Below, piece after piece: positions 18,527 through 18,951 of a DNA stretch of 64,000 nt. The DNA comes from Escherichia phage CMSTMSU: the sequence record MH494197.1; one strand, written 5' to 3'. Position 1 is the first letter of the stretch, and each line of letters begins with the position of its first letter. Both the position numbers and the translations under genes were made by a program. Below the pieces are notes generated by a model that had not been told where the DNA came from, made no database searches, and saw nothing but the letters and a program-made list of their open reading frames with translations.

Positions 18527-18951
18527 TTAAGTTGACTGCTTCTTGATTTCCTCAGCAGCGGCACGTGCCAATTCATCAGCAAGGTTATTATATACATTAT
18601 CCGCATGGGCCTTAACCCATTCAAATTTACAACCTGAACTGATACTATCCAAAATTTGCCATAATTCAACGTTCTTAACGTTATTCCACTTTTTCCATCC
18701 AACAATCCATTCGTTCATCCCACGGACAACGTAGTTGGAATCAGTGAAAACAGTAATATCTGGATTATCGTACACATCTTTAACATATTGAATACCAGCG
18801 ATGGTAGCTTGTAGCTCCATCTTGTTATTCGTAGTCATTATATCACCAAATGATAGTTTGTCCGGACTTCGTTATCAACAATAACAACAATACCCACACC
18901 ACGGTCCGGGTTTCCAAGACATGAGCCATCAGTATATAAGTCTATCTTCAT
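18527..18951 (-). CDS. rnhA: RNase HI (type 1 ribonuclease H), frameshifted
   Basis: N-terminal [20 protein letters not shown] in one frame, C-terminal [19 protein letters not shown] in ORF 18527..18838. Confidence 0.65.

Follow-up and report, generated by a model that had tools for sequence, protein, structure and literature searches.

RNase HI and a FEN-type nuclease in an Asteriusvirus jumbo coliphage: a conserved pairing probably obscured by long-read assembly errors

A gene for a type-1 RNase HI was found on the minus strand at 18527-18951 of the window, by which we mean the whole stretch of 64,000 nucleotides from Escherichia phage CMSTMSU (sequence record MH494197.1) that was analysed. 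We consider, with a probability of about 90%, that it is a genuine Asteriusvirus RNase HI gene of the rnhA type, of approximately 144 codons, which is intact in the real phage, and that the frameshifts seen in the window are long-read errors. That the real phage carries an intact copy is, taken by itself, almost certain. The phage lineage also encodes a nuclease of the FEN fold to which T4 RNase H belongs. The pairing of the two enzymes put forward in a preliminary description of this DNA is thereby confirmed in part, since neither gene is an open frame in the window.

By megablast, the region belongs to Asteriusvirus, whose members are jumbo coliphages like 121Q and PBECO4 with genomes of ~350-380 kb, and the closest records were those of BF17, Ecwhy_1, WPEC3/5, fEgEco12 and others. 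The phage is thus an Asteriusvirus jumbo phage and not a T4-type phage (Straboviridae). BF17 and 121Q serve as references throughout.

The RNase HI gene and its lesions

The gene, its two fragments and the lesions within it are as follows.

18527-18951, minus strand: rnhA-type RNase HI gene, 425 nt as assembled (true gene about 435 nt, 144 aa), interrupted in the assembly
18838-18951, minus strand: N-terminal RNase HI fragment with the catalytic D8, closed by the TAA at 18840-18838
18527-18863, minus strand: C-terminal RNase HI part in a second frame, frame B (...FTDSN...KAHAD...LADELA...*), with the equivalents of E47, D72, H119 and D129
18863-18864, minus strand: frame-breaking 1-nt deletion, GTCCAGGAC in BF17 and 121Q to GTCCGGAC in the window, a Dcm CCAGG collapsed to CCGG
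18902-18908, minus strand: two collapsed CCWGG sites, CCCTGGACCAGGTGG to CCCGGACCGTGG, net -3 nt, by which the invariant GNPGPGG is corrupted to GNPDRG
about 18689-18695, minus strand: 6-nt in-frame deletion in an A-rich run, GGAAAAAGAAAAAGTGG to GGAAAAAGTGG, which turns KKKK into KK and removes two lysines of the protrusion

The start codon ATG occupies 18951-18949 and the stop codon TAA 18529-18527. The preliminary description had placed a canonical RNase HI at exactly these coordinates, and the homologue indeed lies there, but it is not a continuous ORF. The length of the interval is not divisible by 3, the first frame reaches its TAA after 37 codons, and the frame switches at 18864/18863; the reading of 18527-18951 as a single ORF was rejected on its length and this early stop. 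The peptide TTNNKMELQ...ADELA is in another frame than the N-terminal peptide, and the two peptides that had been quoted as parts of one ORF therefore come from two different frames.

When the two frames were stitched, the window yielded a protein of 141 aa that matched the Pfam RNase_H profile (PF00075) with an E of 1.5e-31 and 109.9 bits (cut-off 25.8), which is far beyond chance. The BF17 orthologue, an intact protein of 144 aa, matched the same profile with an E of 4.8e-36 and 124.5 bits (cut-off 25.8), and positions 5-140 of the 141 in the RNase_H profile were covered, which amounts to the full domain. E. coli RNase HI (rnhA; PDB 2rn2, 1rnh and others; PF00075) is 45-46% identical over the whole length, and its structures were the best matches among solved proteins, with an E of ~1e-31. 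Since the solved RNase HI structures are matched at 1e-31 and 46% identity, we regard the assignment to the RNase HI family as settled.

The catalytic residues D8, E47, D72, H119 and D129 (BF17 numbering) correspond to D10, E48, D70, H124 and D134 of E. coli, and the columns of this D-E-D-D site and its histidine are invariant in an alignment of the E. coli enzyme with seven jumbo-phage homologues. The loss of catalytic residues from this copy had been raised as a point that would tell against the RNase HI; the window encodes every one of the five, split over the two frames. The same alignment shows no variation in the GNPGPGG and TTNN-MEL motifs or in the tryptophans of the basic protrusion, and the protrusion (handle region) is present, with W81, W85, K87, W90, N100 and W104 invariant. 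The phage protein accordingly resembles E. coli RNase HI in its D-E-D-D and histidine site, in GNPGPGG and TTNN(R/K)MEL, in the protrusion tryptophans and in its single-domain size. It differs in that the Asteriusvirus protrusion is 5 residues shorter (E. coli WKKRGWKTADKKPVKN) and the C-terminal tail is shorter too, and the gene differs from E. coli rnhA in being phage-encoded and in lying in a frd-rnhA-dda operon. Protrusion length varies within the clade (alignment columns about 95-103): the Asteriusvirus, Munch and XaC1 proteins are 5 residues shorter than those of E. coli, GAP32, CBB and fHe-Yen9.

The orthologues of relatives are uninterrupted and 142-151 aa long, that of 121Q being an intact protein of 142 aa. 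Nine Asteriusvirus records encode an RNase HI with at least 99% amino acid identity to the BF17 protein; the orthologue shares 86% identity with that of 121Q and 49-57% with those of other genera. The dN/dS between the BF17 and 121Q genes was 0.12, and the RNase HI gene is therefore under purifying selection. Annotated orthologues with the same position and neighbours are found among the Rak2-like phages (121Q gp43, PBECO4, GAP32_309, CBB_314, fHe-Yen9-03 g312 and BF17 QXN76383.1). What sets the window copy apart from these is its frameshift and local corruption, which we take to be assembly errors: the stitched protein is 92% identical to that of BF17, and the differences are concentrated at the probably artefactual sites. 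Alignment to BF17 and 121Q resolved four lesions; at each of them the window has lost bases, and three of the four lie in Dcm CCWGG motifs. The 6-nt deletion that shortens KKKK to KK may be either an artefact or real strain variation.

The FEN-type nuclease gene

The second enzyme is encoded on the minus strand as well.

49005-49985, minus strand: FEN-family 5'-3' exonuclease of the T4 RNase H type, 328 aa in BF17, with six 1-nt deletions in the window

The preliminary description had reported a T4 rnh-type 5' exonuclease at 49063-49985. Its family and its start at 49985 hold; its end and its open frame do not. The 923 nt between these positions are split into three ORFs, and the fragment that stops at 49063 is a frameshifted one, followed by two further homopolymer deletions before the real stop at 49007-49005. 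Relative to BF17, four of the six deletions are in homopolymers (T6 to T5, A6 to A5, T6 to T5 and one A-run) and two turn CCTGG into CCGG. Apart from the six deletions over the whole gene, the nuclease differs from that of BF17 by one substitution within the aligned stretch.

Residues 6-172 of the BF17 nuclease matched the N-terminal, resolvase-like 5'-nuclease domain (Pfam PF02739, 5_3_exonuc_N) with an E of 2.2e-16 and 60.5 bits (cut-off 34.3), and the protein matched the exonuclease family phrog_107 with an E of 1.7e-39. The profile searches that had been proposed for the RNase H and FEN families both returned the expected family, the former in the window and in BF17, the latter in BF17. 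For the C-terminal helix-three-turn-helix (H3TH) domain, the BF17 orthologue gave no Pfam match at E ≤ 0.01. The best solved matches were T4 RNase H (rnh; FEN/Rad2; 1tfr) and the T5 D15 5'-exonuclease, which share the fold of the phage nuclease at a distance (E ~1e-5). The metal ligands of T4 RNase H have been listed as D19, D71, D132, D155, D157 and D200 (PMC3012046). In the HMMER alignment, D71, D132, D155 and D157 of T4 correspond to E59, D121, D142 and D144 of the phage nuclease, so that three of these ligands remain aspartates and D71 is replaced by glutamate. D19 would correspond to D9, and D197/D200 to D202/D205, as judged from the motifs LLVDTQN and KGDTSDN and not from a tool alignment.

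Deletions across the window

The deletions are spread over the whole window. The whole-window alignment to BF17 gave 98.2-98.6% identity and 296 indel events, or about one per 215 bases, and 292 of the 296 were deletions in the window. Homopolymers accounted for 216 of the indels (9 of which also adjoin GATC or CCWGG) and CCWGG sites for 48. No homopolymer of at least 7 bases occurs in the window, as against 25 in BF17, and runs of 6 bases number 24 as against 64. CCWGG is absent from the 64 kb, although BF17 has 47 sites and dinucleotide-preserving shuffles gave an expectation of 41.5 ± 5.6; 45 of the 47 BF17 sites have been collapsed by deletions of 1-3 nt to CCGG, CCG, CGG or CG, and the other two differ by substitutions. 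The counts of GATC are normal (109 in the window, 112 in BF17). Deletion bias, homopolymer compression and errors at Dcm CCWGG sites, which together mark nanopore-type error, were all found. Nanopore basecalling errors induced by methylation or modification at E. coli motifs, as well as homopolymer inaccuracy, have been documented (PMC11610603).

The damage is too wide to be that of the living phage. The window breaks 72 of the 85 BF17 CDSs, including those of the major capsid protein, the DNA polymerase and both terminase pieces, and also primase, helicases, NrdA/B and topoisomerase II; with capsid, polymerase and terminase among the broken genes, the assembled state is therefore incompatible with a viable phage. 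The window's deletions were common to no record in the phage collection, the best match over 18300-19500 reaching 96.5%. Given deletions that favour homopolymers and CCWGG, the frameshifts in the RNase HI and nuclease genes are therefore best regarded as artefactual. From this pattern we infer that they are uncorrected long-read errors, probably of the nanopore type.

Two other accounts of the frameshifts were weighed. If both were real, the RNase HI and the FEN-type nuclease would be pseudogenes and the phage would rely on its host. Both genes are indeed interrupted as assembled, but lesions of this type also break the genes for capsid, polymerase and terminase, 99% of them are deletions, which cluster in homopolymers and strike every alignable CCWGG, and the nuclease otherwise differs from BF17 in its aligned stretch by that single substitution. 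We therefore hold a double pseudogene to be very improbable. Still harder to credit is a programmed ribosomal frameshift or another recoding site in the RNase HI gene, for which it can be said that the two overlapping ORFs together make up a full RNase HI. The gene is a single uninterrupted ORF in all nine closest relatives and in more distant genera, and the shift amounts to exactly one missing base in a CCAGG, one of the 45 collapsed motifs. Both accounts give way to the reading of a gene that is intact in the phage and damaged in the assembly.

The loss of CCWGG was also considered as natural avoidance of the motif (EcoRII/Dcm). This was rejected, since BF17, which is 98-99% identical, keeps its 47 sites in the same region and since the 45 sites were removed by 1-3-nt deletions inside coding sequence, not by synonymous substitutions.

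Errors fall at every alignable CCWGG and not at GATC, which implies 5-methylcytosine at the Dcm sites of the phage DNA that was sequenced. As judged from the error pattern, the phage cytosines would be open to a Dcm-type methylase of the host or of the phage, and would not be otherwise hypermodified.

For the large terminase subunit (window 46188-47818; BF17 224186-225827), even the BF17 record has two CDSs, of 113 aa and 445 aa, which overlap. A frameshift, an intron or intein, or a mis-annotation of the reference is suggested by this, independent of the errors in the window.

For users of this record, the practical consequence is that any call of a split gene, pseudogene, frameshift or missing motif made from the window should be treated as an artefact until it has been checked against BF17 or other close relatives.

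Operon context, possible roles and spread of the pairing

The RNase HI gene is flanked closely on both sides by genes on the same strand.

18948-19463, minus strand: dihydrofolate reductase gene (frd), lying upstream within the operon; Pfam DHFR_1 with an E of 2e-31 in the BF17 orthologue; 6 deleted bases, frameshifted in the window
18948-18951, minus strand: ATGA in which the DHFR stop codon overlaps the start codon of RNase HI (translational coupling), with the TGA at 18950-18948 and the DHFR frame ending ...WMDAYQ*
17167-18501, minus strand: Dda-like SF1 helicase gene, immediately downstream; Pfam AAA_30, PIF1 and UvrD_C_2 in the BF17 orthologue; 6 deleted bases, frameshifted in the window

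The preliminary description was right that the RNase HI gene overlaps the DHFR stop: the ATGA is the same in BF17, and the 4-nt overlap is annotated in both BF17 and 121Q. The order DHFR-RNase HI-Dda is kept in BF17, 121Q, GAP32, CBB, fHe-Yen9-03, Munch and XaC1, that is, in three named genera and two unclassified lineages, and the genes overlap or abut in five lineages. In Klebsiella phage RaK2 (Alcyoneusvirus), no RNase HI gene was found between frd and dda, the position at which it was looked for; this slot holds at 13506-14090 a Mom-family DNA-modification gene (Pfam PF25680, E 4e-37), so the slot is exchangeable within the clade.

Just downstream of the helicase, at 15177-16233 of the window, lie two frameshifted genes, orthologues of those annotated in 121Q as a protein like translation initiation factor IF3 and a ClpS-like protease adaptor. 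These are unusual host-takeover genes that are typical of this jumbo clade.

On this arrangement, rnhA would be the middle gene of a translationally coupled frd-rnhA-dda operon within a block for nucleotide metabolism and replication, and the RNase HI is most likely functional and expressed with DHFR and Dda from this one operon. Acting by two-metal catalysis through D8, E47, D72 and D129 with H119, the enzyme would degrade the RNA strand of RNA/DNA hybrids. The stand-alone FEN-fold exonuclease at 49005-49985 would then remove the junction ribonucleotide and the flap, which RNase HI cannot cut. Such a division of labour would parallel that of RNase HI and the 5' nuclease of Pol I in bacteria, and with the two phage enzymes the clearance of Okazaki primers and R-loops would need neither RNase HI nor Pol I from the host.

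To our knowledge, T4 has no RNase HI gene, and Hobbs and Nossal are said to have reported in 1996 that T4 needs either its own RNase H or the host Pol I. In bacteria, RNase HI and the Pol I 5' nuclease (FEN) are the same two folds working in series, and the standard model of Okazaki fragment maturation there has RNase H cleave before FEN removes the remaining 5' flap (PMC10191290). On that model, the two folds in the phage are therefore expected biochemistry and not redundancy. The phage pair differs from the bacterial one in that its FEN forms a protein of its own and that the virus encodes both enzymes, beside a T4-like replisome with a B-family polymerase.

The main substrate may nevertheless be another one. 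RNase HI needs about 4 consecutive ribonucleotides, and T4-like pentaribonucleotide primers would be marginal substrates. If the phage primase makes such pentaribonucleotides, R-loops rather than Okazaki primers may for this reason be the main substrate. In a stronger form, the RNase HI would be functional but its main job would be the processing or clearance of R-loops together with the adjacent Dda, and not the removal of Okazaki primers; it could serve R-loop-primed origin firing in the style of T4, relieve conflicts between transcription and replication on a 350-kb genome, or destroy the RNA/DNA hybrids of host defence. The linkage to dda is tight and conserved, with genes overlapping or abutting in the five lineages, a dedicated FEN is already present for primer and flap removal, and a DHFR-dda slot that can take a Mom-family gene, as in RaK2, is typical of accessory genes and not of the core replisome. 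The dda linkage and the RaK2 replacement thus hint at an accessory, possibly R-loop-related role. Gene order alone, however, does not prove functional coupling, and primer removal by RNase HI with FEN is the default model (PMC10191290), so we treat a main role in R-loops as a tentative, rather doubtful possibility. More speculative, and in our view improbable, is the proposal that the RNase HI is not a back-up primer remover at all but part of an rnhA-dda module, acting on R-loops for origin firing or conflict relief, or on host-defence hybrids, and housed in the exchangeable frd-dda slot. Whichever hybrids it prefers, a functional RNase HI that shares primer and R-loop clearance with the FEN-type nuclease is the reading we favour.

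The preliminary description had called the presence of two primer-removal enzymes of different folds unusual for a T4-type replisome. The replication genes are indeed T4-like: they include a B-family DNA polymerase (phrog_262), a clamp loader (phrog_168), a DnaB-like helicase, a primase and a UvsX-like recombinase, as well as Dda and a two-subunit topoisomerase II. The phage that carries them belongs to Asteriusvirus and not to Straboviridae. As to rarity, RNase HI homologues at E ≤ 1e-8 were found in only 102 of 50,697 phage records. The Escherichia-phage matches numbered 36; among those listed, they were apparently Asteriusvirus or Asteriusvirus-sized genomes and SSU5-like plasmid-phages, and classical T4-like coliphages were absent. 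Both genes occur in the same records in Asteriusvirus, Mimasvirus (GAP32, CBB) and Eneladusvirus (Serratia BF, fHe-Yen9), and also in the Erwinia pEa_SNUABM phages, in Munch/7t3/PHA46 and in the Xanthomonas XaC1 group. Depositors had annotated both, in GAP32 with the Pfam accession. A 2021 comparison of 224 jumbo phages reported RNase H1 in several phages of the T4-related 'subgroup 2.2', and flap nucleases in subgroups 2.1 and 2.2 (PMC7824862).

The pairing of RNase HI and FEN is thus unusual only when set against classical T4-like phages. Within the Rak2-like jumbo clade it is the conserved norm, already annotated and known. Its biological significance is small: it fits the trend of jumbo phages to independence from the host, and it mirrors the cellular pathway of RNase H and FEN.
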